From Pseudomonadota bacterium (GTDB taxonomy: Bacteria > Pseudomonadota > Gammaproteobacteria > Burkholderiales > JABEVD01), in the NCBI GenBank assembly GCA_021835845.1, contig JAKBJU010000005.1, positions 36,505 to 100,504 of the forward strand: 64,000 nucleotides of DNA. Direction: 5' to 3'. Of this stretch, positions 11,352 through 59,182 are shown in pieces; the first letter of the stretch is position 1, and each line of letters starts with the position of its first letter. The notes under the pieces were generated by a model. That model was not told the origin of the DNA. It did not search any database and saw only the letters and a list, made by a program, of their open reading frames with translations. Position numbers and translations under genes: made by a program.

Positions 11352-11685
11352 TCCGGAAAATTATCCTTTTTTTGTCTCCCTGGCAACAGGAGGCAATTTG
11401 GATTCGCTATGCCGATGATTCGCGACCGTGGCTGAAATTGGTCGCCAGAAAGTCGATCTCCGCAACGAAAAATGGCGGGATGGGCCATCCTCCCGAACTG
11501 AAACGGCAGCCTTTCCGAACATTGTTGCAGATTTCCCGCATGAAGTATTTTTCATCCGATTTCGCGAATTTCCAGGAACTATCGCGCCTCGATGCAAGTC
11601 CATGGTACGGGATGCGGACCGGCACAACAGGAATTCATCCGCATTTGAAAAAACGCATCGTCAAATGAATTGTGAGGAGATCAGC

Positions 11686-11913
11686 ATGAATAAATTTTCC
11701 ATAACGCTGTCTGGCATGCTTCTGGCCATGGTTGCGCTGCAGGCTTCTGCGCAGCCGCCTGCATGGTTCATGGTCAAGCACCCGGAAGTCAGGACCATGG
11801 AGCGCATGCAGGCGCAAAAAGAGTCGGCCGCCAGGAACCGGGCGCTTGCCGCAAAATCGAAATCCGGCAGCAAATATCACGCCTCAACACAAAAAAGCTC
11901 GAATCATGGCTGA
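11686..11913 (+). CDS. Small secreted hypothetical protein
   Basis: ATG at 11686 with GAGGAGA upstream. Signal peptide MNKFSITLSGMLLAMVALQASA followed by a Lys/Ala-rich tail. 75 aa. Confidence 0.5.
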   Translation: MNKFSITLSGMLLAMVALQASAQPPAWFMVKHPEVRTMERMQAQKESAARNRALAAKSKSGSKYHASTQKSSNHG

Positions 11914-12074
11914 GCGCCATATTCCGCCGCCCCATGCGCATTGGATGCCGGGGTACTCTGCAGCATGATTGGATTGCGCCTTCCCCTGGGAAGGCGCTTC
12001 TGTCGAAATTCCAAGATCCTTGTCGTCAATTCCTGCCGCGATCCTGATCATGGCACCAGTTTCCTTTTATTACG

Positions 12075-31939: not shown

Positions 31940-32133
31940 CGTGCTTTCCTTGATGGGGAATATTTCGTAGCACCCGCTTTTAACTATCATTATCATTATC
32001 GTTTTGCAATTGGTGGTGAGGCATAAGGCCGCATGCCTTGCTGGTGGGGTGATCGGTGTAGGCTGAATTTCGAATGGTCAAATTCAATGGATATCATTTT
32101 ATGACTTGCTTTAATACTCTTAGGACGGGAAAC

Positions 32134-32742
32134 ATGATCCATCGTTTGCTGGCGGCGCTGTGTTTTGCTTTCCTTTTTGGTGCTGCTGCTGGTGCGGAAC
32201 CTTTCGTGCAGGGAGGCCCCATCGGGTCACAGACTCCTGATGGTTATAATGCGTTGGGGCCGGTAGTCAAGCAACCCATCGAGTTTCCCCATTACAGGCA
32301 TGCACGCGACATGGGGATCAACTGCATGTACTGCCATACGGGTGCAAGGCGCGGTTATGTGTCGGTGATTCCAAGGATCGACAAATGCATTGGGTGTCAT
32401 CAAAACATCGAATCGGTCAGGAATAAACCCAGGATCAAGAAGCTGTTTGAATATTGGGACAAGAAGGAGCCCATTCCTTGGAAAAAGGTCAATGACCTTC
32501 CGGATTATGTCAGATTCAACCATGAGCGTCATATACAGCGTTTCTATTTTAGGCAGAACAGGCCGGTACGAGAGGTGTGTGGATATTGCCATGGCGACGT
32601 TGCCAACATGACCGTCGACAGGCGCGTCAAGGCGCTGTCTATGGGTTGGTGTATTAGCTGTCACCAGAAGGACCACAAAGAAAGCGATACGAACCTGAAA
32701 ACAAGCCACGGCCCGGGAGAATGCTGGCAGTGTCACAAGTAA
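32134..32742 (+). CDS. actA: Alternative Complex III pentahaem cytochrome c subunit ActA
   Basis: Five CxxCH sites: CMYCH, CIGCH, CGYCH, CISCH, CWQCH. The signal/anchor MIHRLLAALCFAFLFGAAAGA starts at the ATG at 32134. The ORF-track start at 32074 adds 20 non-signal residues. Confidence 0.85.
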   Translation: MIHRLLAALCFAFLFGAAAGAEPFVQGGPIGSQTPDGYNALGPVVKQPIEFPHYRHARDMGINCMYCHTGARRGYVSVIPRIDKCIGCHQNIESVRNKPRIKKLFEYWDKKEPIPWKKVNDLPDYVRFNHERHIQRFYFRQNRPVREVCGYCHGDVANMTVDRRVKALSMGWCISCHQKDHKESDTNLKTSHGPGECWQCHK

Positions 32743-32805
32743 GGGTTTGCGGTACCAATCGCGGACGTATTTCCATCCAAAAATTAGCTATGGGAAGATT
32801 TGGTT

Positions 32806-35022: not shown

Positions 35023-35024
35023 AA

Positions 35025-35873
35025 GTGTCGATTACGAATCTTTTGAACAACTGGTCTTTCTACAGGAAAAAGCGTCCTTATCAGGGGCAATACGATCTCA
35101 ATAGACAGTACAGCGAGTACAAGTGGGCAATGGCCCTGGATCTTGACATCTGCACGGGCTGTAATGCATGCACGACTGCCTGCTATGCAGAAAACAATCT
35201 TCCGGTGGTTGGCAAGGAGCGCTTCAAGCATGGACATGTGATGCACTGGATCAGGATTGAGCGCTACTGGGATGAGAAAATGGGCGAGTTTCCTGAGCAA
35301 GGCGCATCTTTCCTACCCATGATGTGCCAGCAATGCGAAGAGGCCCCTTGCGAGACTGTTTGTCCTGTCGGTGCAACCAGTCACACCAACGACGGCTTGA
35401 ATTCCCAGAATTATCATCGGTGTGTCGGTTCCCGGTACTGCTCGGTAAACTGCCCTTACAAGGTCAGATACTTCAATTTCTGGAATTATCCTTCTACTGC
35501 TTGGCCGGCACCTCTTCCGGATCAGCTTAACCCCGATGTGACAGTCCGCACCAAGGGAATTATGGAAAAGTGCACGTTCTGTGTCCAGAGACTGAATGAA
35601 GCCAAGAGCCGCGCCAGAACGGAATATCGCCTCGTCAGGGACGGAGAAGTCGTGCCTGCTTGCGTCCAGGCTTGCCCGACAAGCGCGATAACCTTTGGCA
35701 ATATAGTTGACCCGAAGTCGAAAGTTGCAATGATGTGGAAGAATCAGCAGGTCGATCTTTACAAAGACATGCAGGAAAAGGACAACTCGGTTCGTGGATA
35801 TAGGATATTGGAGGATTTAAGACCGTTCCCGTCAGTGATGTACTTGGAGCGAGTAAGGGATATGGAAGCATAG
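35025..35873 (+). CDS. actB2: ACIII ActB2: 4Fe-4S cluster subunit (PsrB/DmsB-like), encoded separately from B1
   Basis: CTGCNACTTAC, CQQCEEAPCETVCP, CVGSRYCSVNCP, CTFCVQR..ACVQACP. Confidence 0.88.
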   Translation: MSITNLLNNWSFYRKKRPYQGQYDLNRQYSEYKWAMALDLDICTGCNACTTACYAENNLPVVGKERFKHGHVMHWIRIERYWDEKMGEFPEQGASFLPMMCQQCEEAPCETVCPVGATSHTNDGLNSQNYHRCVGSRYCSVNCPYKVRYFNFWNYPSTAWPAPLPDQLNPDVTVRTKGIMEKCTFCVQRLNEAKSRARTEYRLVRDGEVVPACVQACPTSAITFGNIVDPKSKVAMMWKNQQVDLYKDMQEKDNSVRGYRILEDLRPFPSVMYLERVRDMEA

Positions 35874-35940
35874 GATTGATCTCACCTTAACTGCTTGTGT
35901 TCCTCTTATAGGTAATGTTTTTACTTCAAGGAATTTTGTA

Positions 35941-37398
35941 ATGGTCAATACATACGAAGAAACAGAAGTCGCCGTAGAGAAGCGATTTGTCCCGAAACCG
36001 CTTGACATAAATGCAGATATCGCATGGGCAAAAATCAATAAGGACATACTCCGCAGTTTGGAGCGTCCAAGGCCAATATTCTGGGTGATTTTCATTGCAT
36101 CGTTTGCCTTGTTCTTGGTTGGTGTCTCTTGCGAAGTTTATCAATATCAAACAGGCATGGGTGTAGCCAATCTGAATAACCCGCAGGTGTGGGGGCTTTA
36201 TATTGCGACATTCATCTGGTGGATTGGAATGGGGCACTCCGGAACGCTGCTTTCAGCCCTTCTGCATATCATGCATGCAGACTGGCGTAAGCCGATTTAC
36301 CGATATTCCGAAGCGATGACCACATTCACACTGCTGACTGCTGCGCTCTTCGTCATGGTTCACTTGGGCAGGATTTGGCAGTTCTACTACGTGGTGGCCT
36401 ACCCGAATGAAAGATGGACATGGCCTAACTTTCAGTCTCCCCTGGTCTGGGACGCAACCGCGATCGGAACCTACCTCACTTCGTCGCTCCTGTTCCTTTA
36501 CATCGGGATGATTCCGGATCTGGCTATTTGTCGTGACAATGCCATTGGAATCCGCAAGAAGTTGTATACCTTCATGTCGCTTGGCTGGATGGGGACCGAT
36601 CGGCAATGGGCCAACTTCCGCGTCACTTATTTGACTCTGGCCTGCTTTCTGATGCCCCTTGCTGTTTCCGTGCATTCCATCGTTTCGACCGATTTTGCTG
36701 CATCACAGCAACCCGGTTATCACATTACGTCCTTTCCTCCCTACTTCGTCGCAGGGGCTATATATTCAGGGCTGGCTGTGATTATTACTCTCTTCATTGT
36801 CCTTCGATATACGTTCCGATTCGAGGAATATATGACCATGCCGATTCTCGAAAAGCTCGCAAAATTAACTTTTGCAGCGGGAATGGTGTGGACTTACCTG
36901 AATCTCATCGAATATGCCACGACATGGTATGGCAATGACATGTACGCCAAGCAGGCCTTGATATACCGCGCTACAGGTCCGTTTGCTCCCGAGTGGTGGA
37001 TGATGAACTTCCTTGGGTCGGTGCTTCCTTTTGCACTCACCTTCAAAAGGGTAAGGGCGAGTATTCCTGTAATGCTTTTCATGTCTATCTTCATCAATTT
37101 CGGGATGTGGCTGGAACGCTGGATGATTATTTCCCCGACCTTGGCACACGGAATTTATCCCTGGACCTGGGACGACGATCAATGGCCAAGCTTTGTCCAA
37201 TGGGGAATTGTTGCCGGCAGCTTTGGCTGGTTCAACATGCTCTTCATGTTGTATTGCAAGATCTTTCCTTCAGTTTCAATGTATGAGGTAAAGGAAATGC
37301 TTCATGAGCGTCGATTCTTTAAGAGTACCAACGTAGCAACTGCTCGGGATTCCGCGATTAATCCAGATTTGGCAGTTGAGGGAGGTCTTGCATCATGA
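35941..37398 (+). CDS. actC: ACIII ActC: NrfD/PsrC-like quinol-interacting membrane subunit
   Basis: 485 aa, about 10 TM helices, with NrfD-like WGLYIATFIWWIGMGHSGTL. Confidence 0.85.
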   Translation: MVNTYEETEVAVEKRFVPKPLDINADIAWAKINKDILRSLERPRPIFWVIFIASFALFLVGVSCEVYQYQTGMGVANLNNPQVWGLYIATFIWWIGMGHSGTLLSALLHIMHADWRKPIYRYSEAMTTFTLLTAALFVMVHLGRIWQFYYVVAYPNERWTWPNFQSPLVWDATAIGTYLTSSLLFLYIGMIPDLAICRDNAIGIRKKLYTFMSLGWMGTDRQWANFRVTYLTLACFLMPLAVSVHSIVSTDFAASQQPGYHITSFPPYFVAGAIYSGLAVIITLFIVLRYTFRFEEYMTMPILEKLAKLTFAAGMVWTYLNLIEYATTWYGNDMYAKQALIYRATGPFAPEWWMMNFLGSVLPFALTFKRVRASIPVMLFMSIFINFGMWLERWMIISPTLAHGIYPWTWDDDQWPSFVQWGIVAGSFGWFNMLFMLYCKIFPSVSMYEVKEMLHERRFFKSTNVATARDSAINPDLAVEGGLAS

Positions 37399-47667: not shown

Positions 47668-48015
47668 TCAGTTTAGCGTGATTTCGCCTTCGATGTCTTC
47701 GGCTGCGTCGATGACAATGGAATGCAGGGTAACGTCAAACCACTTCCAGAAAAGTTTGAGTGTCCTGTCTGCCGGCCAGGTGTTCTCTTCCTCCGACCAT
47801 TCGGAAAGCTCGGCTTCGAAGATATTGCCGTAGATATGATCTATCGCGGCGAGCGCATCCTCGATCTCGTCGAAATCAGGAATGAGGTAGACCGTGGAAT
47901 CCGTCCTCAACTGCTCCAGGGTGATGTCGATTTCCGAGCCGGGCAGAGCCTTGATCCATTCCAGGAAAGGCTCCCGGGGCTTGACGATGGCGACGCTACG
48001 ATCAACGGCATACAT
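47668..48015 (-). CDS. Acidic hypothetical protein
   Basis: 115-aa ORF with no recognisable motif. Confidence 0.45.
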
Positions 48016-48148
48016 GGCTTGAACCTCCCCCTGTGACTGGCTGATTCATTGTATATCATCCATGATGACAGCATGAAGAAAGACGCCCCTCCCGGAGTCG
48101 TGGAGGAGCGCTTCATTCTGACAAACTTGCCTGGGTCTTCAACCCGGA

Positions 48149-50185
48149 TCAGTAGCGCGAGTCGCTTGGCTTGCCGCCTTTGGGCCAATCATGGACCTTG
48201 GCCGGGAAATCGCGCCTTGGCATGTGGCTGAAATACTCGCCGACGTCCACCGCCTGCTGATCCGTCAGGCCGCCCTGGCCGATTGGAAAGGAAAAGGTGT
48301 TCGAGAGCGGCATGACATTCTTGGCAAATGCGGCTGCCGTGTAGGTCTTGGCAATCCCTGCGCCGATATTGTACGAGTCGTTGCCCCACAGCGGCGGGAA
48401 CAGATAGCTGCCATCGGCGCGCTTGATGCCTTCGCCCTGTTTTCCGTGGCAAACGGCGCAGGAATGATTATAGACTTCCTTGCCATTCGCCGCGTTCGGC
48501 ACGATGCTTTTGCTGATCTTGCCGACGCCGCGCCCGGGGATCTTCTGCTTCATCTGATAGCCATTTCGCATCCAGTCCATGTAGGCGATCATGGCGTTCA
48601 TTTCACTGGAGTTCTTGTCCAGCGGGTTGCCTGCCATCGAACGCAGCATGCAGCCATTGACGCGGTCCTTGAAGTCGATGATGCGTCCGGCACGGGGATT
48701 GTAGCTGGGAAACTGGGCCGCCACGCCGACATAAGGAGACGCAAGCGCGACTGTCCCGCCATTGATGTGGCAACTGTCGCAGTTCAGCCCATCGCCCACA
48801 TAGTTCGGCAACAATCGCTTGGTGTCGCGCATCAGGCGCATGCCGTAGATCAGCTGGCTTGCATTGGCGCTTTTCAGCATGTCTGCATAGCGCGGCGGAT
48901 TGAATTTCGGCGGCTCGGCCTTCTTCATTTCCAGCGCCTTCCTCATCTTGTGAATCTGCTCGGCAGTCACCGGGCTGCCCTTGTTGCCCCAATGGGTCCG
49001 GACAAAAGTCGCGATTTCCGCGACTTCCTGGTCATTCAGCACGGAATAGGAGGGCATAGCAAAGGCGTGCGGGGAGGAGGCGGTCAGAGGTGATGCAGAG
49101 CCAGTCAGCATGACGTGGATGAGGGATGCGGGATCCTTGGCCTGAATAGAGGTATTGCCGGCGAGCGGCGGGAAAAAGCGTGTCGCACCCTTGCCGTCCA
49201 TCTGATGGCAAGTTGCGCAGAATTGCACGTAACCGAGGCCGCCGCGGGTTGCATAGATCTCCTTGTTGGTTTGAGCGACATCCATCGACACGGCGTCCCG
49301 TCCCGGCACCTCATTCGGATTGGGAGAAAGCGAGTGGATGTACTCGCCGATCGCTGCGAGGTCCCCTTGGGTGAAATGCTGCGAGCTGAAATGGACCACT
49401 TCGGCCATGCCGCCGTAGGCTGTTCCGCGGCCATTTTCACCCGTCTTCAGGAACTGGGCGATTTCAGGACCGGTCCAGATACTGCGCAGATTGACGGCAC
49501 GCCAGTGCTCGACGTCCGCCCCGGCCAGAAACTCCTTGCCGTCGCTGCCCGAATCGCTCATGGCCTTTTCCTGGAAACCGATGCCGCGCGGGGTATGACA
49601 GGAGCCGCAGTGACCGAGCCCCTCTACAATATATGCGCCACGATTCCATTGCGGGGTGTGCGAGGCATCATAACGGAAGGGCTGGTTATCCAGGAACACC
49701 ATGTTCCAGCCTGCGAGCCCCAGGCGGATGTTGAAGGGAAACTTCATGTCATTGGGCTTGTTGGGCTGAGCAACCGGCTCGACGCCTTGCATGAGGTAGG
49801 CGTAAAGGGCTCTCATGTCGTTCTGGGCTATTTTGGCGAATGAAGGATAAGGCATGGCGGGATAAAGATTGTGGCCATCCTGTGCAACGCCGCGGCGCAT
49901 CGCGCGATCGAAATCCTCAAAAGTATAGGTGCCGATGCCATCTGTTTTGTCGGGCGTGATATTGGTGGAATGGATGACGCCGAACGGCGTTCTCATTTCC
50001 AGGCCCCCCGCCAGCGGCTTGCCGCCAGGCGCGGTATGGCAGGCGACGCAGTCGCCCAGATGAGCCAGATATTCGCCCTGCTTGACCAGATCATTGGGCG
50101 AAGGCGCTGCAGCCAGCGTGGAGCTTGCAACCATTGTTGCCAATGCGGCACCCAAAAATTTCAGCGAGGCTGTTCCCAACTTCAT
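48149..50185 (-). CDS. Five-haem periplasmic cytochrome c: ADH-type trihaem module + TsdA-like dihaem module
   Basis: Signal peptide. Haem sites CVACH, CGSCH, CATCH, CDSCH, CAVCH. The N-terminal part resembles dehydrogenase cytochrome subunits (STNITPD, LYPAMPYPSF, DMRALYAYL). The C-terminal part resembles TsdA/SoxA (FPPLWG.DSYNIGAG, QGGLTDQQA). Confidence 0.8.
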   Translation of the reverse strand: MKLGTASLKFLGAALATMVASSTLAAAPSPNDLVKQGEYLAHLGDCVACHTAPGGKPLAGGLEMRTPFGVIHSTNITPDKTDGIGTYTFEDFDRAMRRGVAQDGHNLYPAMPYPSFAKIAQNDMRALYAYLMQGVEPVAQPNKPNDMKFPFNIRLGLAGWNMVFLDNQPFRYDASHTPQWNRGAYIVEGLGHCGSCHTPRGIGFQEKAMSDSGSDGKEFLAGADVEHWRAVNLRSIWTGPEIAQFLKTGENGRGTAYGGMAEVVHFSSQHFTQGDLAAIGEYIHSLSPNPNEVPGRDAVSMDVAQTNKEIYATRGGLGYVQFCATCHQMDGKGATRFFPPLAGNTSIQAKDPASLIHVMLTGSASPLTASSPHAFAMPSYSVLNDQEVAEIATFVRTHWGNKGSPVTAEQIHKMRKALEMKKAEPPKFNPPRYADMLKSANASQLIYGMRLMRDTKRLLPNYVGDGLNCDSCHINGGTVALASPYVGVAAQFPSYNPRAGRIIDFKDRVNGCMLRSMAGNPLDKNSSEMNAMIAYMDWMRNGYQMKQKIPGRGVGKISKSIVPNAANGKEVYNHSCAVCHGKQGEGIKRADGSYLFPPLWGNDSYNIGAGIAKTYTAAAFAKNVMPLSNTFSFPIGQGGLTDQQAVDVGEYFSHMPRRDFPAKVHDWPKGGKPSDSRY

Positions 50186-50314
50186 GTATTCACTCCATCT
50201 TGTTTCGACCCAACAGGCCTCAAATTATGCAAAAAGAGCTCGGATTCGAGCCATTTCAATGGGACGGGATACCGAGATTCGATCCCGAGAGATATCGTTC
50301 AACCGAACATGCCC

Positions 50315-50337
50315 GGCCGCTCTGGTCGAGAGCGGCC
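50315..50337. other. Perfect 9-bp stem hairpin (GGCCGCTCT-N5-AGAGCGGCC) between the SBP gene and the cytochrome gene
   Basis: Read directly from the sequence. No U-tract on either strand. Confidence 0.5.
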
Positions 50338-50346
50338 GAAGCTTCA

Positions 50347-51294
50347 TTACGGGCGATACGGCTTGAAGCCGTATTGTTCGAAAATCGCCAGCGCCTTGGA
50401 GGATTTCAGGAATTCCACCCAGGCTTTTGCCGCTTCAGGATTGGGCGCATCCTTGAGCACCCCTGCCGCATAGATTGCGGTCGAATTATGCTCGGGCGCA
50501 ATCTTCACGAACGAGATGGGGTTCCCAGCATGCTTTTCCTGGAAAACGGCTTCCGAGCCCCATGTCACGCCGGCAACTGCTTTTCCTTGCATCAGGAACA
50601 TCGGACTCTGGCGGTGATGGATGTGGGTAAGGATGGTTTCTCCGTTCTTCACTTTCGTTTCATAAACGGCTTTCACCAGATCGTCTCCACCAGCCTTCTT
50701 CAGGGCAGCCTTGATTTGCCGCGCGATGCCTTCGAAAGCGGGATTGGGCATGACCAGCCTGACGCCGGGTTTGCCGAGATCCTTCAGCGAGGTAATGTGG
50801 CCTGGATTGCCCTTCGGTACCATGATGGCGAGATCATTGGTCGCATAAGGCTCGACCGCTTTCACATAGCCCTTCTCAACCATCTGCTTGACGCGCTTCA
50901 TGCCTGCGGCATAAACATCCGCCTTCACCGTCCAGGTCATGTTGCCGACCGTGATGGTGCCGCCTTTTTCAATCTGGGTGGCAAGCAAACCGGGGGGGAT
51001 GGTTTCGTAGTAAATCTTGCCCTTGTATTCAGGATGTTCCTTTTCGAATTCGGCCACCAGCGGCGCCATGGCGAAATAATAGTTTCCGCCGACGAAAACT
51101 GACAGCTTCGCATCCATGGGATTGCCGTGAAAATCCGGCAGGTTGTCGACTTCCGGGACGGTGAATTCCAGACCTCTTTCAGTGACCGGGTTGTTTCTTC
51201 CTTCGCTCCATGGCGGGTAAACATCCGAGACGGCCTGCGCCGTCGCCAGGAGGCATCCCAATCCCATGAGCGATGAAATCAGCCTTTTGTTCAT
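50347..51294 (-). CDS. Orphan periplasmic oxyanion-binding protein (ModA-like, no permease or ATPase nearby)
   Basis: The ATG at 51294 has GAGGGA 7 nt upstream. Signal peptide MNKRLISSLMGLGCLLATAQA. ModA-like blocks: TNDLAIMVPKGNP..LKDLGKPGVRLVMPNP..AGVTWGSEA..AIYAAGV..FEQYGF. Confidence 0.7.
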   Translation of the reverse strand: MNKRLISSLMGLGCLLATAQAVSDVYPPWSEGRNNPVTERGLEFTVPEVDNLPDFHGNPMDAKLSVFVGGNYYFAMAPLVAEFEKEHPEYKGKIYYETIPPGLLATQIEKGGTITVGNMTWTVKADVYAAGMKRVKQMVEKGYVKAVEPYATNDLAIMVPKGNPGHITSLKDLGKPGVRLVMPNPAFEGIARQIKAALKKAGGDDLVKAVYETKVKNGETILTHIHHRQSPMFLMQGKAVAGVTWGSEAVFQEKHAGNPISFVKIAPEHNSTAIYAAGVLKDAPNPEAAKAWVEFLKSSKALAIFEQYGFKPYRP

Positions 51295-51305
51295 GTGGTT
51301 ATCCC

Positions 51306-52091
51306 TCACTTTGCATACTGGAAGCCATGCACGCCGAGTTCCGGCAAGGTGGCCACGATGCCTGGAGTGAGAATCACGCCCGGGATCAGGTGGTTGGTGA
51401 ATTCGGCAACCATTTGCGGCACACTGAGTTTGTCAGGGTTGACACCCTTCTTGTTCAGCATGTGCGAAATCTCGAAAATCGCATTGTGGCAGGCCAGAAA
51501 GACCGCACCCCTTGCCTGGAGGGAGGCTATGGAATTATCCGCAGGTGAAAATACGCCTTCCTCGTCCTCGAAGTTTTTCGGGTCGGCGTGCGCTGCCGCA
51601 GGCACTTTCAGGAAGGTGTTTTCCTTGAATTTGTCCCCGGTCAGCTTGGAAAGCTGGTACTTGTCCCAGAGATATTGATCGTAGAGCGCCAGATGAGCGG
51701 GGCCATGGGTCGCCGAAACGCACAGGAAGTCGGGATGCTTGAATGACCATATCTGGGCATTCATTGAATTTCTCATGAGATTGAGCCAGGGGCCCGAGAT
51801 GTCCGTATTGTCCCAAACCTGCTTGACCTTGCCCTTGTACTTCATGAGGATGGTCAGGGCTTCATGATCCCATTCTTCTTCCTTGGTCAGGATCATGGGC
51901 ACTTCCTTGAAGTCGCGGCGGCGAGGCGCCTTTGCGAGAGCCTTCGTCAGTTCCTTCAGCGTCTTCGCGCCATCCGGTTCCAAAGAAGAAAGAGGGGCTT
52001 CCGCTGCCTGGGCAATGCCGCTTCCCAAAGCTACACCTGCGAGGCCGGTTTTTGCCACGATGCCCAACATATCTCGACGCGCCATATCCAT
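51306..52091 (-). CDS. Tat-exported protein of unknown function with DsrE/COG1416-like motifs
   Basis: MDMARRDMLGIVAKTGLAGVALG (twin-Arg signal). VSATHGPAHLALY and GAVFLACHNAI resemble the two conserved DsrE-like blocks (low-confidence memory match). Confidence 0.55.
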   Translation of the reverse strand: MDMARRDMLGIVAKTGLAGVALGSGIAQAAEAPLSSLEPDGAKTLKELTKALAKAPRRRDFKEVPMILTKEEEWDHEALTILMKYKGKVKQVWDNTDISGPWLNLMRNSMNAQIWSFKHPDFLCVSATHGPAHLALYDQYLWDKYQLSKLTGDKFKENTFLKVPAAAHADPKNFEDEEGVFSPADNSIASLQARGAVFLACHNAIFEISHMLNKKGVNPDKLSVPQMVAEFTNHLIPGVILTPGIVATLPELGVHGFQYAK

Positions 52092-52201
52092 GATCGGTAT
52101 TCTCCTTTGTTGTGATGGTCAATCCGGGCCGCGCTGGTTCGCAACAGGCCCTGTGCCCGCCCTGGGCATTGAATCATTCCCATTTGAGGGTGTCCCAGAA
52201 T

Positions 52202-52218
52202 TATACAGGATGAGTATA
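52202..52218. promoter_or_regulatory. LysR-type T-N11-A dyad (TATAC-N7-GTATA)
   Basis: Lies in the 186-bp divergent region between the Tat-protein gene and the lysR-family gene. A TATAAT occurs at about 52241. Confidence 0.4.
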
Positions 52219-52277
52219 GATGCATTACAAATTACGCGGGTATAATCGACCGGCAAAATAGATCGAAGGAATACAGC

Positions 52278-53231
52278 ATGCGTATCACGTTACGCCAGTT
52301 GCAGATTTTCGTCGCCGTCGCGCGCACCTCGAGCACAACCGAGGCGGGAAAGAGCCTGCCCCTTTCACAGTCTGCAACCAGCGCGGCCATCAACGACATA
52401 GAAAGCCTGCTCAACACCCAGTTGTTCGATCGAGTCGGAAAGCGCCTCGTGCTCAATGACAACGGACGACTGCTCCTGCCCAATGCGCTTGCCCTGATCG
52501 AGGGGGCAATCGATCTCGAACAGCAGTTTTCGACTGCCCGGACCGGGATGGTTTCGCAACTTCGTTTGGGGGCGAGCACGACCATTGGCAACTACATCCT
52601 GCCCGGCCTGCTTGCCGGCTGCCGCAGGGAGCAATTCGGAGAATGCGAAGCGGCGCCTAGCATGCGAGTGGACATTGCCAATAGTTCAAAAATCGCCGAA
52701 GCAGTCGCGAATTACGAGATAGATGCCGGCTTTATAGAAGGACACTGCCATGTGCCGAATCTTGAAGTCATTCCCTGGATTCAGGATGAGCTGCTGATCG
52801 TCGCCTCCCCGACCCATGCCATAGCCAGGAAGGGCAAGGTTGATTTCGATACGCTTCAGCAGGTGCAATGGCTGATGCGAGAATCCGGGTCGGGCACGCG
52901 CGAGACCGTGGAATACGAATTGCTGAGGCATCTGAGCCATCTGAACATCGGAATGGAATTCGGCGGAGCGGAAGCGATCAAGCGTGCAACCTCGGAGGGC
53001 CTCGGAATAAGCTGCCTGTCGCGATGGGCCGTTGCGGATTATCTGGAAACCGGGCAATTGATCATCCTGGAAACCGAATTGCCCAAGCTGACCCGGAAAT
53101 TCCACATCATCCTGCACAAGCAAAAATATCTTTCTGACAATCTCAAGCATTTTCTGAACCATTGTGCTGGAAGCGAGATATTCACGTCGTCGCTCATGCC
53201 AAGCGAAGCAATCTGCTTGTCGCCGGCATGA
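52278..53231 (+). CDS. LysR-family transcriptional regulator
   Basis: MRITLRQLQIFVAVARTSSTTEAGKSLPLSQSATSAAINDIE..LFDRVGKR. Confidence 0.9.
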   Translation: MRITLRQLQIFVAVARTSSTTEAGKSLPLSQSATSAAINDIESLLNTQLFDRVGKRLVLNDNGRLLLPNALALIEGAIDLEQQFSTARTGMVSQLRLGASTTIGNYILPGLLAGCRREQFGECEAAPSMRVDIANSSKIAEAVANYEIDAGFIEGHCHVPNLEVIPWIQDELLIVASPTHAIARKGKVDFDTLQQVQWLMRESGSGTRETVEYELLRHLSHLNIGMEFGGAEAIKRATSEGLGISCLSRWAVADYLETGQLIILETELPKLTRKFHIILHKQKYLSDNLKHFLNHCAGSEIFTSSLMPSEAICLSPA

Positions 53232-53332: not shown

Positions 53333-56300
53333 TCAACTGGAGGCTGAGCCTCTTTCCAGAGACCAGCGAGTATCGTCGACTAGCCATTGCAGTAGCGCAT
53401 CGAAAGGCATCGGGTGCCCGATATAAAAACCCTGCCCCTGATCGCACTGATTCTCGACCAGAAATGAGAGCTGCTCTTCGGTTTCTATGCCTTCCGCAAT
53501 GACGGGGATCTTCAGGTTATGCCCCATGGCAATGATCGCGGTGATCAAGGCCGCATTCCCCGCGTCCCCAGTCACATCCCGGACGAAGGACTGGTCGATC
53601 TTGAGCTGGCTTATCGGGTAGCGTTTCAGGTAACTCAGGCTTGAATACCCGGTTCCGAAATCGTCGATGGCGATTCCCACCCCAAGCACATGCAGCGCCT
53701 CCAGAGCGGTGGCGACATCGCTTCTTTCATCCATCAGCACGCTTTCGGTGATCTCCAACTCCAGCTGAGCACTTTCCAGGCTAGCCTGCCCGAGAGCATT
53801 TCTAACCAGCATGACCAGATTGCCGTTCATGAATTGCCGCGGCGATATATTGACTGCGACCTTGAGCGCTACGCCCAGCAGCTTTTCCATCCTTTTTGCA
53901 TCACGACAGGCCGCCTCCAGCACCCATTGGCCGATCCGCAAGATGAGCCCTGTTTCTTCAGCCAGGGGAATGAAAGTGGAAGGCGGCACATGCTGATCGC
54001 TCCCGTTGTGCATGCGCAGCAAAGCCTCGACGCCCAGTACGGTCTTCGACTTCAAATCCACTTTCGGCTGATAGAACAAGGAAAAGCCGTCGCTTTCAAT
54101 GGCAAGATGAAGCTCCCTTTCAATGCTCAACCGGTTCGCCGCCCCCCTGTCCATTTCCCGCGAATACATCTTGTATCCGTTGCGCCCATGCTCCTTGACC
54201 CAGTACATCGCCACATCGGCACATCGCAGAAGCTCGTTCATGTCGTGGCCGTCGCGGGGACAAATGCTGAATCCGATGCTCGACGTAATGTGTACTTCCT
54301 GAATGCCCACATTGATCGGCTGCATCAATGCCTTGTGGATGCGCCCGGCGACGAGCGACACTCCAGTCGCGTCGGTTTCGCTCAGAAGCAGGACGAATTC
54401 GTCTCCTCCCATCCTGGCAAGCGTGTCGGTTGGCCGCAGGCAAGAAGAAACACGTTCCACGAACTCCTTGAGCAGCCTGTCTCCGATGTGATGACCCATC
54501 GAGTCGTTGATATGCTTGAAACGGTCGATGTCCATCATGCCCAATGCAAACGGGATATTGCTTCTGTGCTGCTGCTCGATCGCCACCATTATCCTGTCAT
54601 CAAGCAGGGCACGATTGGGCAGTCCGGTCAGTACATCGTGCAGGGCAATGTGCCTGATGTATTCCTTGGCCCGCATTTCCTCGGAAATGTCGTAGGCAAT
54701 GCCGATGAACCCCTGGATTACATCGTTCTCATCGCGCAATGCGCTCACCGAAAGATGCACGGGAAAGCGTGACCCGTCCTTGCGAATGTAGGTCCATTCA
54801 TGTTCTTCCTGGAAAGTTTTCCTGGCCTTTGCGACGAACACCTCGAAATCCGGCGGCACCGCACAGCCGAGCTCCTGGCTCAATGCCGCAGCGCGCTCCC
54901 TGATTTCATCGGCATCGTGAAATAGCAGCGGATTGGCTTTGCCGACCACCTCATTCGCGTCATACCAGAGCATGCGCTCTGCAGCCTTGTTGAAAGTGAG
55001 TATGGTGCCGTCGATGTCGGTGGAAATGATCGAGTAGGCTGCATTTTCAACGATCGCGGTGCGCAGGCGGTTCGAGTATTCGAGCTGCTGGAACAGGCGT
55101 TTTTCCTGCGTGATGTTCCTGAAGGTGACGGCAATACCACCGGGCATGGCCACCGCCTGGCGCTGATACCATTGGGTTGCGCCATCGCTGGCCAGGGAAA
55201 ATTCGTTGGTCAGCGGATTTCCCGTGAGAACCACTTTCCTGTATTGATCGAAAATGTCCCGCTGTTCCGGAAAGAGTTCCAGCAACGAATGTCCAACCAG
55301 GCCATCGGCTGGCAGTCTGGCCATTTCTGCCGCATGAGAATTGGCGTAGATGTAGCGGAAATCGACAATATCTCCGCCCTCGCTTTTCATGCTCTCACCA
55401 ATCACGAACCCATCCGGGCTGCTTTCCCTTGCCGCCTCGAAGCGGGCTCTCGCAATTCTTTCAGAAGCATGGGCATTTGCTAGATCCTGGGTCAGCGGGC
55501 TGACCCGAAGACGGGTGATCCATAGTCCCAGGGCGACCAGAATGGCGATCAAGGGAAGCGCAATCAAGAGTTCCCGTTTGACCGGGGCGTAAACTTCTGC
55601 GACATCCATTTTCAGAACCAGACCCAGCCCTGTATTACCCACGGGGCCGTAGGCTGACAGGACATTTCGTCCCCGGTAATCGATCGACGAGAAAATGCCG
55701 CTTTCGCCGGCGAGTGCATGCATCATCGGCAGCGGTTTCCCATTGAAAGTGTCCGGAATCACATACATGGAAACCTGTTCACGCTGCGGAAAGCATAGCA
55801 GTCTGCTCCGATCGAGGCGACTGCACATCGGCATGGTGCCGGTATTTCCCCAGCGGCTGGATTCGTCGAAAATCCTGTTCACATCGCGAAGTTCCTGTTC
55901 GAACACCATGAAACCTTCCGGGACGCCGCGAATCGCTTGTTTTACGGGGATCAGTACGCGCAGGTAGTAGCCATTATCCCAGGCGAGATAAACTTCTCCT
56001 TTCCGGTTAAGACGGGAGAAGGCGGTTTTATCCGAAACAAGACGCCCCACAACAACTCTGCTCCGGGTGCCATCCTCCAGGCCGATTCCGGAGAACCCGT
56101 ATGCAAGCAAGCTGGAAATCGGGATATCCCGCGCCATGGTCGATTTGGCTTTGCCAAACCAGAGAGATACCAAGGATTTGAGTTCGGGGTCCTGACTCGC
56201 TACTGTCGTGCGCTCTATGCGGTCGTCGAGCGCGGCTTCGATCTGCGAGCGTCTCGCACTCAAGCTTTGCTGCATATCCAGTGTCGCCTGATTCAGCATG

Positions 56301-57043
56301 GCTTTCTCTAGAAACCAGATCCCGGTCAGGCCGACGGCGACAGAGGTGAGGATGACCACGAAGACCGTGGTGTGGTAAATCTGCCTGGCTCTTTGTTCAG
56401 CTGCTATAGCGAAGGCGCTTTCTTCGCAGCGAATCGCAAGACACAGCAGGCCGGCACCTAGCAGGGTCATGCCGACGGCGGTGGGCAGGGACATCCATAT
56501 CAGTCCCGTCTCGATATACAGCGTTTCGAAAAGATACTGCAGCTTGAGCCAGTATCCGAAGATAACGGTCAGTCCCATGGCGAGCAGCAGGGCAGCCATT
56601 GTGCCGGCAAGCATACGCATCTTCCGGTCAGCAGCCCGCCAAACGGACAGCATCCCGATTCCGAATCCCAAGAATCCCGTCACCGTCTGCGGCGACATGT
56701 GGCCGACGCTCTGGAACTGCGCTCCCCAAACCAGCGCCAGAAAATCGATGCCGGCGAATTGCCGATGGGCAGCAATTTCAAGTCCCATTGCCCCGGCAAG
56801 CAGCATAGTCAGCCAGACAAGCATGCGCGCTGCTAAGGATTCCCGGCTTCCGAGCAGAGACAGCCCGCTCAAGACGAAACAGAGTGCCGTGCCAGGCACC
56901 ATGGGAATCCAGTCGGGGTCGATGCGCGTCAGCAGGGGAATGCCGAATGCCCAACCAGCGAGAACCGTGCTGCCGATCAGAAAGGTGAATATGCCGGCAA
57001 GGAAAACGATTTTATGGCGATCAGTTCGCTGGAAGGCTGGCAT
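53333..57043 (-). CDS. Multi-domain c-di-GMP protein: polytopic N-terminal sensor, extracytoplasmic domain, 2 PAS, GGDEF, EAL
   Basis: 1236 aa. About 8 TM helices, then a roughly 250-aa loop between two further TM helices. GGDEF: RPTDTLARMGGDEF. EAL: EALLRM..DDFGTGYSSLSYL..QGFY. Confidence 0.88.
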   Translation of the reverse strand: MPAFQRTDRHKIVFLAGIFTFLIGSTVLAGWAFGIPLLTRIDPDWIPMVPGTALCFVLSGLSLLGSRESLAARMLVWLTMLLAGAMGLEIAAHRQFAGIDFLALVWGAQFQSVGHMSPQTVTGFLGFGIGMLSVWRAADRKMRMLAGTMAALLLAMGLTVIFGYWLKLQYLFETLYIETGLIWMSLPTAVGMTLLGAGLLCLAIRCEESAFAIAAEQRARQIYHTTVFVVILTSVAVGLTGIWFLEKAMLNQATLDMQQSLSARRSQIEAALDDRIERTTVASQDPELKSLVSLWFGKAKSTMARDIPISSLLAYGFSGIGLEDGTRSRVVVGRLVSDKTAFSRLNRKGEVYLAWDNGYYLRVLIPVKQAIRGVPEGFMVFEQELRDVNRIFDESSRWGNTGTMPMCSRLDRSRLLCFPQREQVSMYVIPDTFNGKPLPMMHALAGESGIFSSIDYRGRNVLSAYGPVGNTGLGLVLKMDVAEVYAPVKRELLIALPLIAILVALGLWITRLRVSPLTQDLANAHASERIARARFEAARESSPDGFVIGESMKSEGGDIVDFRYIYANSHAAEMARLPADGLVGHSLLELFPEQRDIFDQYRKVVLTGNPLTNEFSLASDGATQWYQRQAVAMPGGIAVTFRNITQEKRLFQQLEYSNRLRTAIVENAAYSIISTDIDGTILTFNKAAERMLWYDANEVVGKANPLLFHDADEIRERAAALSQELGCAVPPDFEVFVAKARKTFQEEHEWTYIRKDGSRFPVHLSVSALRDENDVIQGFIGIAYDISEEMRAKEYIRHIALHDVLTGLPNRALLDDRIMVAIEQQHRSNIPFALGMMDIDRFKHINDSMGHHIGDRLLKEFVERVSSCLRPTDTLARMGGDEFVLLLSETDATGVSLVAGRIHKALMQPINVGIQEVHITSSIGFSICPRDGHDMNELLRCADVAMYWVKEHGRNGYKMYSREMDRGAANRLSIERELHLAIESDGFSLFYQPKVDLKSKTVLGVEALLRMHNGSDQHVPPSTFIPLAEETGLILRIGQWVLEAACRDAKRMEKLLGVALKVAVNISPRQFMNGNLVMLVRNALGQASLESAQLELEITESVLMDERSDVATALEALHVLGVGIAIDDFGTGYSSLSYLKRYPISQLKIDQSFVRDVTGDAGNAALITAIIAMGHNLKIPVIAEGIETEEQLSFLVENQCDQGQGFYIGHPMPFDALLQWLVDDTRWSLERGSASS

Positions 57044-57162: not shown

Positions 57163-58188
57163 TCAGGTGCCGTATATTGTCGTCCTGTTTCTTCCCCGGG
57201 TTTTCGAGGCGTACAGCGCCTTGTCGGCTTGATTGAGCAATTGGTTGATGTCTCCATTCACGGTGAGACTGGCAACGCCGATGGAAACGGTGACAGCGCC
57301 TATGGATTCCTGCGAATCGATGCGGCGGATCTTTCCGATTTCTATACTCTTCCTGATATGCTCGGCAACTGCATATGCGCCGGCAGCTGGCGTCTCGGGT
57401 AGCAGTACGGCGAATTCCTCCCCGCCCAGCCTTGCCACGGAATCCTGCCCCTTGACCTTGGATTTCAGCATTTCCGCCACAGCCCTGATCACCTTGTCGC
57501 CAACCAGATGCCCATAGGTGTCGTTGATTTTTTTGAAATGGTCGATATCAATCATCAGGAGACATATTTCTTTGCCCGAAGAAGCGCTTTCGTCCAGAAT
57601 CCGCGAAGTGGCCTTTTCAAATCCGCGGCGGTTGAGAATTCCGGTCAAGGGGTCGATCATGGCTTCTCCCTTGGCAGACTCAAGCTCCCGATGAAGTTCT
57701 TCGACTTCCTGCTTGCTGTGCTCCAGCTGGTTCTGCAGGTTCAGCACGCTGCCGCGCATGTGTTCGGTATCCTCGACCATCTCTCCGATCAGTTTCCCCA
57801 GGGCGGATTCGTCGAGGTTCTGCTTGAGCTTTTCCCCATAGGATTGAAGATTGTCCCCGAACCCCATGGCGCGCCTGTCTGTTTCTTCGGTGAATCCCGC
57901 AAGCTTGCCCAGGATTTTCTGGAGATCCTGCCTGAGAAGCTTGTGGATATCCAGGTTGCATTCCGAAACATATTCCGCATAGAGTTTCTCGATTGCCTCA
58001 TCGTCGAGCCTGGTTTCCGAATCGAGATACTGCCCAAGCGCATCTGACAAGGCCGGATTGATCCCGGCAAGATGCTCGAACCACACTGCGTAGGCCCATG
58101 GGGTGAAGGAGGAGGGATGAGCGGCCATTTTCTGGATGACCAGCCTCAGAATTTCCCCGCTTGCATCGCGCCCCTGTTCGTATCTCAT
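57163..58188 (-). CDS. Diguanylate cyclase with an uncharacterised N-terminal domain and coiled coil
   Basis: Start MRYEQGRD at 58188. DPLTGILNRRG..IDHFKKINDTYGH..ARLGGEEF. No RxxD I-site (KGQD instead). Confidence 0.85.
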   Translation of the reverse strand: MRYEQGRDASGEILRLVIQKMAAHPSSFTPWAYAVWFEHLAGINPALSDALGQYLDSETRLDDEAIEKLYAEYVSECNLDIHKLLRQDLQKILGKLAGFTEETDRRAMGFGDNLQSYGEKLKQNLDESALGKLIGEMVEDTEHMRGSVLNLQNQLEHSKQEVEELHRELESAKGEAMIDPLTGILNRRGFEKATSRILDESASSGKEICLLMIDIDHFKKINDTYGHLVGDKVIRAVAEMLKSKVKGQDSVARLGGEEFAVLLPETPAAGAYAVAEHIRKSIEIGKIRRIDSQESIGAVTVSIGVASLTVNGDINQLLNQADKALYASKTRGRNRTTIYGT

Positions 58189-58309
58189 CGTTCGCAATCT
58201 TCTCTTTTGATTGAAAAGGCATTTTAGCAGAAGGTTTGGATCAAGTCTTTCCCTGAGACGCCACAAACGCGATGGGGTATCATTCAGCCCAATACTTGAG
58301 GAGAGAAGC

Positions 58310-59182
58310 ATGGATTCAAAACTGGAAGCAACATTTGGCGAAGTGGATTTTGTGGAAGGCCAGAACGGATTCGAACTGGTCGAGGTGAAAAATTCTGCAG
58401 GAAGCGCCACCATCGCCCTGCAGGGCGCGCAGCTGCTTTCCTGGACGCCGGCCGGCGAAAAACCGGTAGTCTGGCTCTCGAAAAATGCGAAATACATGCA
58501 GGGGAAATCGGTGAGGGGCGGCATTCCCATTTGCTGGCCCTGGTTCGGGCCGCATCCGGAAGAATCTTCCTATCCCGCTCACGGTTTCGCCAGGAACCTC
58601 GTCTGGGAAGTGGGTGGAACGAAAAGCCTGACGGATGCGACTCAGGTCGTTCTGCGCCTGGTTCCGAACGAGGCATCCTGGCCTTACCCTTCCGAGCTTG
58701 AATGCCGGATCAAGGTGGGCCAGACATTGGAAATGGAATTGATCACCCAGAATACAGGACTTGAGCCTTTTACACTGGGATGCGCCCTGCATACCTATTT
58801 CGAGGTGGGCGACGTAAGAAAAATCGAAATCCTGGGGCTGGAGGAAGCCGCCTATATCGACAAGGTGAATGGCGGTAAAAATCGGCAATCCGGCCCGGTG
58901 ACAGTGAATTCCGAGGTCGACAGGATCTATCTCGACACAGCGTCGGATTGTCTGATTCGTGACCCGATTTACAACCGCGTCATCCGGGTGGAAAAAGAAG
59001 GGAGCCGCTCGACCGTGGTGTGGAATCCCTGGGTGGACAAGGCTGACAAAATGGGTGACCTCGGAGATGACGGCTACCTGAACATGCTGTGCGTCGAGAG
59101 CTGCAATGCGGCAGATGATGTCGCCATCGTCCCTCCGGGAAAATCGCACCGGCTCTCGGCCAGGTATTCAGTCCTCGCATGA
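58310..59182 (+). CDS. D-hexose-6-phosphate mutarotase (aldose 1-epimerase family, YeaD-like)
   Basis: ATG at 58310 after GAGGAGAG. GGIPICWPWFGPH..YPAHGFARN. Confidence 0.8.
   Translation: MDSKLEATFGEVDFVEGQNGFELVEVKNSAGSATIALQGAQLLSWTPAGEKPVVWLSKNAKYMQGKSVRGGIPICWPWFGPHPEESSYPAHGFARNLVWEVGGTKSLTDATQVVLRLVPNEASWPYPSELECRIKVGQTLEMELITQNTGLEPFTLGCALHTYFEVGDVRKIEILGLEEAAYIDKVNGGKNRQSGPVTVNSEVDRIYLDTASDCLIRDPIYNRVIRVEKEGSRSTVVWNPWVDKADKMGDLGDDGYLNMLCVESCNAADDVAIVPPGKSHRLSARYSVLA

Follow-up and report, generated by a model that had tools for sequence, protein, structure and literature searches.

A tsd–sbp pair beside a pentahaem TsdA-type cytochrome: a recognisable thiosulfate-oxidation locus in an uncultured proteobacterial lineage

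Genes and proteins of the locus

The stretch analysed here (64 kb of contig JAKBJU010000005.1, assembly GCA_021835845.1; hereafter the window) carries a locus built around two genes: tsd, for a haem-free thiosulfate dehydrogenase (TSD) exported by the twin-arginine translocation (Tat) pathway, and sbp, for a periplasmic oxyanion-binding protein. These genes and that of a pentahaem c-type cytochrome lie on the minus strand, and a LysR-type regulator gene is divergent on the plus strand. An earlier sequence-only reading had given this order and these coordinates correctly (Table 1), together with the Tat signal of the 261-aa protein (M-D-M-A-R-R-D-M-L...AQA, with both Arg residues invariant in 32 homologues), the five haem-binding motifs of the cytochrome (CxxCH at residues 46, 193, 323, 469, and 576), and the 161-bp gap between sbp and the cytochrome gene (50186..50346). 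The same reading took two DsrE-like blocks as the only recognisable features of the Tat protein and considered the gene trio unassignable to any described pathway. Neither statement held: the Tat protein matched a thiosulfate dehydrogenase model above threshold over its full length, and tsd–sbp is known from the S4-intermediate pathway of Acidithiobacillus ferrooxidans (PMC6335251, PMC2754497).

The match of TSD to the NCBIfam equivalog NF052225 'thiosulfate dehydrogenase' scored 393.1 bits (E = 5e-118; cut-off 300), with residues 5–261 covering profile positions 1–259 of 259, and TSD was 61–63% identical to both A. ferrooxidans copies. By these measures, the Tat protein clearly belongs, at orthologue level, with the haem-free thiosulfate dehydrogenases, a family for which 444 representatives (50% identity clusters) were recovered at E <=0.001 and 68 at E <=1e-30, including many fragments. 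The founding member, AFE_0042, has been known since 2013 as a ~25-kDa enzyme that converts thiosulfate to tetrathionate at acid pH; it was purified by its thiosulfate dehydrogenase activity, with tetrathionate as the product, and within the family this activity is documented for the A. ferrooxidans protein only (PMC6335251). Generic electron acceptors tested with the A. ferrooxidans enzyme failed (PMC6335251), and the acceptor is marked '?' in a 2024 review (PMC10859504). AFE_0042 belongs to a tsd-sbp-doxDA-rhd cluster placed in the S4-intermediate pathway (PMC6335251, Fig. 6), and AFE_0042, AFE_0043, and AFE_0044 were higher in sulfur-grown than in iron-grown cells (PMC2754497).

TSD contains no CxxCH motif and only two Cys residues, Cys201, which is invariant in the family, and C124, which is variable. 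Invariant positions comprised C201-H202-N203, S126/T128/H129/G130, and P243/G244, with P101–N104 as a further invariant block. No Pfam family was matched at E up to 0.1, PF02635 (DsrE/DsrF-like) included, and a sequence search of the PDB with TSD and a 32-sequence profile returned nothing meaningful, there being no structure of the family in the copy searched. The AlphaFold2 model built with 32 homologues had a pLDDT of 86 outside the signal peptide (below 50 within it), and Foldseek placed the DsrE-like proteins 2pd2 and 3pnx at the top of the PDB matches, with probabilities of 1.00 and 0.97 at E-values of only 0.01–0.03. In the model, Cys201 lies at the junction of strand 197–201 and helix 202–214, and the invariant blocks occupy the edge of the DsrE-like sheet that the C-termini of its strands form, where the active site of TSD would be expected. 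The Cys motif of short periplasmic DsrE proteins LRSRGVQFEVCDNSLVE also aligned with the TSD motif LQARGAVFLACHNAIFE. The DsrE-like character first read from the two blocks was accordingly backed by fold and motif. An hhalign comparison of the TSD profile with one short periplasmic DsrE protein yielded a 26-residue local motif match with a probability of 18%, and the relation is described here as a resemblance of fold and motif; homology is not claimed.

The sbp gene follows tsd closely. Its start was given as GTG 51309 in the list of open reading frames (ORFs), whereas the ATG at 51294 (MNKRLISS..., with a Sec signal) is the likelier start; it lies 12 nt past the tsd stop and 8 nt from a GAGGG Shine-Dalgarno sequence (51303..51307) that does overlap the tsd TGA (51306..51308), as had been noticed before. 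The protein matched PF13531 (E = 1.6e-57) and was 61–71% identical to the A. ferrooxidans sbp copies. Its mature form contains no Cys. The AlphaFold2 model (pLDDT 84) matched the ModA/PEB3/AcfC/SubI/Sbp fold at 16–21% identity, and the family, with a mean column identity of 68%, displayed the invariant motifs GGNYYFAMAP, TVGNMTW, MPNP-FEG, and THIHHRQSP.

An ordinary ModA or Sbp protein, taking up molybdate or sulfate via an ATP-binding cassette (ABC) transporter encoded elsewhere and only incidentally adjacent to tsd, would have the same ModA/Sbp fold and would account for the weak ModA and sulfate-binding matches and for the name 'molybdate-binding protein' that JGI applies to sbp homologues. 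However, the score against TIGR01256 modA was 60.9 bits, under the cut-off of 62.5, and the other ModA, WtpA, Sbp, and CysP models gave 17–34 bits against cut-offs of 155–482, which leaves the protein far under the thresholds for sulfate- and thiosulfate-binding proteins; identity to any solved ModA or Sbp was within the range given above. Moreover, sbp was syntenic with tsd or a DsrE gene in >60 loci and never lay beside an importer, and the A. ferrooxidans orthologue is sulfur-induced (PMC2754497). No ORF of the 64-kb window combined Walker A and LSGG motifs, in agreement with the earlier statement that an ABC transporter is lacking, and no ModB or ModC partner is encoded there; in ~820 kb of related loci, no ABC importer was found beside a tsd-linked sbp. 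In view of this synteny and of the scores below cut-off, a ModA with modBC elsewhere was rejected, and we assign this explanation a very low probability. Family matches and gene order show sbp to be a conserved transporter-less partner of TSD (AFE_0043 family).

The cytochrome is a fusion of two haem proteins. Residues 11–416 matched residues 20–435 of 8gy2_B (E = 7.8e-106), with further matches to 8hdd_B (E = 5.9e-94) and 7w2j_C (E = 3.2e-79). This part is homologous to the trihaem cytochrome c subunit found in membrane-bound dehydrogenases of alcohol, glucose, and fructose. The match to the alcohol dehydrogenase (ADH) subunit extends no further than residue 435 of 478, TsdA taking the place of the C-terminal tail of that subunit; quinone reduction should therefore not be assumed for the cytochrome. 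No gene for a pyrroloquinoline quinone-dependent or flavoprotein dehydrogenase subunit lies beside it, and with the tail and a dehydrogenase partner both absent, the trihaem domain was rejected as proof of quinone reduction. Residues 431–660 aligned with residues 11–237 of 253 of Allochromatium vinosum TsdA (4v2k; E = 1.5e-44), and matches to the SoxA family were obtained with PF21342 (E = 7e-13) and TIGR04484. In A. vinosum TsdA, Cys96 is the distal ligand of haem 1 and essential for activity, and Met209 is a ligand of haem 2 (PMC6879331). The single Cys beyond the five CxxCH motifs, Cys512 (NGCMLRS), aligned with Cys96, and Met625 (NVMPL) aligned with Met209. Arg residues at A. vinosum positions 82, 85, 92, and 99 are kept, and Lys208 is replaced by Val, which we liken to the non-ligating Asn of C. 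jejuni TsdA. These alignments show that the cytochrome joins a TsdA-type thiosulfate dehydrogenase, complete in itself, to a trihaem domain for electron transfer.

Homologues of the fusion formed >100 full-length clusters at >=56% identity, and the fusion is common in Betaproteobacteria, where its labels vary between 'thiosulfate dehydrogenase' (some JGI entries), 'c-type cytochrome' (NCBI), and 'alcohol dehydrogenase cytochrome c subunit'. In one locus of the Azospira oryzae type (L099, 5001..9018), the pentahaem fusion is followed by a TsdB-like and TsdA pair, forming tandem TsdA systems without tsd–sbp. Elsewhere in the window (32074..37398, plus strand, with ORFs to ~39524), a gene set encodes a pentahaem c3-type cytochrome of 222 aa, a molybdopterin-like subunit of 740 aa with a Tat signal, a 4Fe-4S protein of 282 aa, and an NrfD-type membrane protein of 485 aa. 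The best NCBIfam models were those of the menaquinone reductase components QrcA/B/C, all below cut-off, and GC content drops to 48–52% around the set. The products of this gene set could connect periplasmic cytochromes, the pentahaem TsdA among them, to the quinone pool.

Recurrence of the pair and its proposed function

To place the locus in context, we compared 96 related loci (designated by L numbers), comprising 12 genome and 80 metagenome loci found with the TSD protein and additional loci found with single homologues. The sbp gene immediately followed tsd, in the same orientation, in 12/12 genome loci and in 64 of the 84 loci with enough downstream sequence. Among 33 well-flanked loci (>=3 kb upstream and >=3.5 kb downstream), the oxidoreductase partner was a TsdB-like protein with TsdA in 11, DoxDA in 10, the pentahaem fusion in four, and another dihaem protein of the SoxA/TsdA family in two (PF21342, E = 1.6e-16), with no partner in six. 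The partner lay <=4.5 kb away in 27/33, in most cases as an immediate neighbour in the same orientation. The tsd–sbp pattern spans Acidithiobacillus, Ferrovum, Noviherbaspirillum, and many other lineages. In A. ferrooxidans, tsd-sbp-doxDA occurs twice, and locus L013 contains, in this order, the genes for a SLAC1-type transporter, tsd, sbp, doxDA, and a rhodanese, which fits AFE_0041-0045 (PMC2754497).

The order tsd-sbp-pentahaem cytochrome was found in the clade of the window (L001–L003) and in a distant clade with 62–67% TSD identity (L025, L027, L039, L050, L071, and L075). In a neighbour-joining tree of TSD, drawn without support values, the partner types were interspersed, the pentahaem-linked sequences formed two separate clades, and the window's clade was nested among DoxDA-linked sequences. 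These data suggested that the partner of tsd has been swapped repeatedly. The link of the pair with TsdA-type or DoxDA oxidoreductases was thus found to recur in distant lineages; tsd–sbp is widely conserved, the cytochrome is one of several partners, and the LysR gene adjoins tsd in L001–L005 only. Full-text literature searches returned no description of an association of tsd–sbp or DsrE–sbp with thiosulfate oxidoreductases.

The same sbp family also occurs with short DsrE proteins of 170–195 aa, which are Sec-exported and are recognised by the Pfam DsrE model; the oxidoreductase beside them is the pentahaem TsdA (L102 and L103) or DoxDA (L105, Sulfuriferula). Gene order accordingly points to a recurring unit in which an oxyanion-binding protein is encoded together with a periplasmic Cys protein of DsrE fold and with a thiosulfate:acceptor oxidoreductase.

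In some lineages, these units are embedded in islands of sulfur-oxidation genes. In L025 (2377..6921 and 11011..12684), as in L075, genes for a radical-SAM protein, a geranylgeranyl-reductase-like flavin adenine dinucleotide protein, a second radical-SAM protein, and an LplA-type lipoate ligase precede the trio, a lipoate set of the kind linked to sHdr/LbpA sulfur oxidation, and a SoxB-like metallophosphoesterase/5'-nucleotidase gene follows it. A TetH-like propeller gene and a TauE gene lie near the sbp unit in L104, and an ArsR-type regulator, YeeE-type transporter halves, and a rhodanese lie near that in L102. A dihaem protein of 351–373 aa with a SoxA/TsdA domain, 35–40% identical to typical TsdA, is encoded directly upstream of tsd in L040, L041, L055, L092, and L094 and represents a fourth partner type; in L040, L041, L055, and L094, a TauE-type exporter gene lies just upstream of it.

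We interpret the locus, with a probability of roughly 70%, as a periplasmic unit for the conversion of thiosulfate to tetrathionate, the entry step of the S4-intermediate pathway, in which the electrons of TSD leave via the neighbouring oxidoreductase. The sbp product would capture an oxyanion (thiosulfate, possibly tetrathionate) in the periplasm and present it to TSD. Cys201, at the DsrE-like active-site edge, would form a Cys-S-thiosulfonate intermediate, which a second thiosulfate would resolve to tetrathionate. Because TSD has no redox cofactor, the two electrons would exit through the adjacent oxidoreductase, namely the pentahaem cytochrome here and TsdB/TsdA or DoxDA elsewhere, and would then pass to the respiratory chain. 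On the evidence of gene adjacency, the oxidoreductase encoded next to the haem-free enzyme would thus be the acceptor of its electrons. The divergent YeiE-like LysR protein would control tsd–sbp from back-to-back promoters, and the cytochrome gene would be a separable unit, perhaps transcribed alone. The earlier suggestion of a module for periplasmic capture and oxidation of sulfur oxyanions rather than uptake is upheld by the tetrathionate-forming family of TSD, the sub-threshold ModA score, the lack of an adjoining importer, and the complete TsdA domain.

Several observations weigh against this interpretation. We infer the coupling of TSD to an acceptor from adjacency only, the 96 loci are not phylogenetically independent and include several near-duplicates, and the LysR gene stands beside tsd in L001–L005 only. 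Recombinant AFE_0042 alone was reportedly active with ferricyanide in the hands of Kikumoto et al. in 2013, which would make sbp dispensable in vitro. Other observations would suit parallel, self-sufficient dehydrogenases, with tsd–sbp and the pentahaem TsdA clustered through sulfur islands or shared regulation and exchanging nothing. The pentahaem fusion, as a complete TsdA, needs no helper for thiosulfate oxidation, and it is solitary in several genomes, occurring without tsd–sbp in Sulfuriferula, Azospira, and Massilia. Conversely, tsd stands alone in Acidiferrobacter, and 6/33 well-flanked loci have no oxidoreductase partner. In L004 (84% TSD identity), lysR, tsd, sbp, a 115-aa gene, and a glycine-zipper lipoprotein gene occur in the same order without the cytochrome gene and without the hairpin that follows sbp in the window. 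Besides this hairpin, which is conserved, the sbp–cytochrome gap holds a terminator-like site, and the promoter scan of the gap was negative. In A. ferrooxidans, TSD and TQO are described as alternative enzymes (PMC6335251, PMC10859504). Nevertheless, independence of the neighbours is in our view unlikely, given that 27 of the 33 well-flanked loci carry one of three unrelated, repeatedly swapped thiosulfate oxidoreductases within 4.5 kb, and that a cofactor-less enzyme needs an acceptor, generic ones having failed when tested (PMC6335251).

The DsrE-like fold of TSD also suggests a Sox-like carrier. In this alternative, the TsdA domain or DoxDA would oxidatively couple thiosulfate onto Cys201, in the way that SoxAX acts on SoxY, or Cys201 would attack tetrathionate made by TsdA or DoxDA and retain a thiosulfonate, so that TSD would not be the dehydrogenase in vivo; the sbp product would feed or remove the oxyanion, and the ferricyanide-dependent activity of TSD in vitro would be a chemical short-circuit of the cycle. 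Such a role would be in keeping with the single invariant Cys and the absence of a cofactor motif in TSD, with the interchange of TSD and short canonical DsrE proteins beside the same sbp and oxidoreductases, with the genuine thiosulfate oxidoreductase that nearly always adjoins, and with the place of TsdA in the SoxA family (PF21342 and TIGR04484). Liu et al. (2014, J Biol Chem) are said to have found that, once they have reacted with tetrathionate, DsrE3A and TusA of Metallosphaera cuprina carry bound thiosulfate. On the other hand, TsdA enzymes turn over carrier-free, no conserved neighbouring enzyme is present to use a thiosulfonated carrier, and AFE_0042 was purified by its thiosulfate dehydrogenase activity, with tetrathionate as the product (PMC6335251). 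This carrier role is a close rival of the main interpretation but in our view less likely.

The oxidation of thiosulfate by TSD itself, with a neighbouring acceptor, remains our preferred interpretation. A broader generalisation is tentatively put forward: sbp and a DsrE-fold Cys protein, either the long Tat-exported TSD or the short Sec-exported DsrE, may together form a substrate module for DoxDA, TsdB/TsdA, and the pentahaem TsdA. TSD might then be, instead of a self-sufficient enzyme, the Cys half of a two-component system, as SoxYZ is with SoxAX, and its acceptor would be the enzyme next door.

The window alone is a recognisable thiosulfate-oxidation locus and not a new pathway; the interest lies in the comparative pattern. 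Reviews of 2019 and 2024 (PMC6335251, PMC10859504) treat the haem-free TSD as a separate thiosulfate route in bioleaching bacteria and assign neither a physiological electron acceptor to it nor a role to its sbp neighbour. The synteny pattern offers a testable answer on both the electron acceptor of the haem-free enzyme and the role of sbp, and if synteny reflects function, the acceptor question can be put directly to three defined protein pairs, in which TSD is combined with the pentahaem cytochrome, TsdBA, or DoxDA. Several tsd homologues go under the name 'transcriptional initiation protein Tat' or are entered as 'hypothetical'. With homologues of sbp, tsd, and the pentahaem fusion often labelled in such ways, S4-intermediate capacity is liable to be under-called in mine-water and soil metagenomes.

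Intergenic features, regulation, and flanking genes

The spacer between tsd and lysR contains the dyad noted previously at 52202..52218 (TATAC-N7-GTATA), which occurred once in the 64-kb window and 0 times in 100 shuffles. Both arms recur unchanged in L001 and L002, but L003–L005 keep them only in part. No inverted repeat of >=8 nt was seen in this spacer in a repeat search, and neither intergenic region yielded a promoter in a sigma-70 scan; the two TATAAT boxes in Table 1 were read from the sequence and its conservation. The LysR protein passed NF008095 (331.9 against a cut-off of 281) and stayed below the YeiE equivalog (371 against 480). The earlier label 'LysR-controlled' went beyond the divergent adjacency of the gene, which makes control of tsd–sbp by this regulator no more than plausible. 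In a Massilia locus (L101, 1923..7097; Massilia sp. BJB1822), a LysR gene whose product is 48% identical to that of the window is divergent from a YeiH-family gene (PF03601), a 262-aa gene, and the pentahaem TsdA gene; judging from this locus, it may be the cytochrome and not tsd–sbp that this LysR subfamily accompanies. The 262-aa protein encoded upstream of the Massilia pentahaem gene was considered as a candidate TSD and proved unrelated.

Other lineages have other regulators, namely histidine kinases and response regulators in Noviherbaspirillum and Ferrovum and an ArsR-type protein in L102. The two-component genes flanking the cassette in those two genera, together with the lack of a transporter for sbp, would fit a TorT/TorS-type arrangement in which sbp is the periplasmic half of a sensor that reports thiosulfate or tetrathionate rather than aiding catalysis. 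However, the type of regulator varies by lineage (LysR, two-component, or ArsR-type) while sbp stays with tsd or DsrE, a cytoplasmic LysR protein is unable to receive the signal of a periplasmic protein, and sbp is translationally close-coupled to tsd. A sensory role for sbp is thus improbable.

In the sbp–cytochrome gap, the GC-rich hairpin just after the sbp stop is kept in L001–L003, with a compensatory change from G:C to A:T in L002 and L003, and has no trailing T-run; it is a candidate terminator, attenuator, or stabiliser. Terminator-like sites in the region were no more frequent than expected by chance in comparison with shuffles, which makes the site at 50227..50252 weak evidence. The whole 161-nt gap was no more structured than shuffles (z = -0.93), the first hairpin alone being notable. 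Co-transcription of the cytochrome gene with tsd–sbp is uncertain because of the hairpin and the terminator-like site and because L004 has no cytochrome gene.

An ORF of 115 aa without a Pfam or NCBIfam match (47668..48015, minus strand) lies between the cytochrome and lipoprotein genes and is 84–97% identical in L001, L002, and L004. Comparison of L004 9733..9840 with window 48016..50346 revealed a clean presence/absence polymorphism of the cytochrome gene. Past the LysR gene, two minus-strand genes were read from their translations: one for a 1236-aa membrane protein with GGDEF- and EAL-type sequence (53333..57043) and one for a 455-aa GGDEF-type protein (57163..58530). The other flank of the locus consists of the housekeeping genes pyrG, kdsA, eno, and ftsB. 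With GGDEF-type and housekeeping genes as its flanks, the thiosulfate locus is not part of a larger sulfur island in this genome.

Table 1. Positions of genes, domains, and sequence elements at the locus (window coordinates)
Feature	Position	Strand	Basis or remark
tsd, Tat-exported haem-free thiosulfate dehydrogenase (AFE_0042 family, DsrE-like fold, 261 aa)	51306..52091	-	NF052225 match
tsd twin-arginine signal peptide, residues 1–30 (RRDML ... AQA)	52002..52091	-	R5 and R6 invariant in 32 homologues
Cys201 codon of tsd (motif F-L-A-C-H-N)	51489..51491	-	sole family-invariant Cys; presumed catalytic or carrier thiol
sbp, periplasmic oxyanion-binding protein without a transporter (315 aa, AFE_0043 family)	50347..51294	-	PF13531
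sbp Shine-Dalgarno sequence GAGGG	51303..51307	-	read from sequence
Pentahaem cytochrome c, trihaem + TsdA (678 aa, Sec signal)	48149..50185	-	five CxxCH; PDB sequence matches
Trihaem domain of cytochrome, residues 11–416	48938..50155	-	homology to ADH/glucose/fructose dehydrogenase cytochrome c subunit
TsdA domain of cytochrome, residues 431–660	48206..48895	-	4v2k match
LysR-type regulator, YeiE-like, divergent (317 aa)	52278..53231	+	PF00126 + PF03466
GC-rich 10-bp hairpin just after sbp stop, CGGCCGCTCT-CGACC-AGAGCGGCCG	50314..50338	-	minimum-free-energy fold
Terminator-like stem GGCTCGAATCCGAGCT then CTTTTTGCAT (T-run)	50227..50252	-	consensus scan; ~45 nt upstream of cytochrome start
Dyad TATAC-N7-GTATA (holds T-N11-A), candidate LysR-type box	52202..52218		motif search
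TATAAT box towards tsd, overlapping dyad	52200..52205	-	read from sequence; kept in L001, L002, and L005; no -35
TATAAT box towards lysR, in most conserved intergenic block GATTATAC (tsd strand)	52241..52246	+	no variation in these columns among the six sequences; ATG 52278 lies 31 nt downstream

Comparison with known systems

The sbp product has the type II periplasmic binding fold in common with ModA, Sbp, and CysP and with the transporter-less proteins PEB3 and AcfC. It differs from ModA, Sbp, CysP, and WtpA in falling below every curated cut-off, in having no permease or ATPase, and in its own invariant motifs.

TSD resembles DsrE/TusD-type proteins (2pd2, 3pnx, and the short DsrE proteins of L102, L103, and L105) in its modelled alpha/beta fold, in the placing of a Cys at a strand–helix junction of the model, and in the motif RG-x-x-F-x-x-C-x-N, and has with the short DsrE proteins of these three loci the same genomic partners, sbp with TsdA or DoxDA. 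In contrast to those short proteins, TSD is ~90 residues longer, uses Tat instead of Sec, and fails the Pfam DsrE model. Whereas DsrE proteins are sulfurtransferases, the TSD family is reported to be a redox catalyst and not a sulfur transferase (PMC6335251).

A mechanistic analogy, and only that, may be drawn with SoxAX–SoxYZ, in which a SoxA-family cytochrome with a haem-ligating Cys likewise stands beside a small periplasmic protein with one apparently essential Cys. However, no SoxY, SoxZ, SoxX, or SoxB gene is present in the window, the DsrE-like fold is not that of SoxY, and the documented product of the TSD family is free tetrathionate.

The C-terminal 230 residues of the cytochrome align with A. 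vinosum TsdA (4v2k/4wq7) over the whole fold and keep the residues for His/Cys and His/Met ligation, the substitution of Lys208 by Val being a difference. In TsdBA of Marichromatium purpuratum (5lo9), TsdA is likewise C-terminal to a fused electron-accepting cytochrome; in the window's protein, the fused acceptor is of the trihaem ADH-subunit type, not the dihaem TsdB, and tsd–sbp lies alongside.

The closest known system is the tsd-sbp-doxDA-rhd cluster of A. ferrooxidans (AFE_0042-0046, with a mirror copy to AFE_0050; PMC6335251), which has the same tsd and sbp families in the same order and with the same close packing, followed by a thiosulfate:acceptor oxidoreductase. The locus described here lacks its rhodanese and thioredoxin genes, has a divergent LysR gene, and belongs to an uncultured proteobacterial lineage represented by a metagenome-assembled genome and not to Acidithiobacillus. 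The genes themselves are known; the locus is distinguished from tsd-sbp-doxDA by its third gene, which encodes a soluble pentahaem TsdA fusion in the place of the membrane quinone reductase DoxDA.

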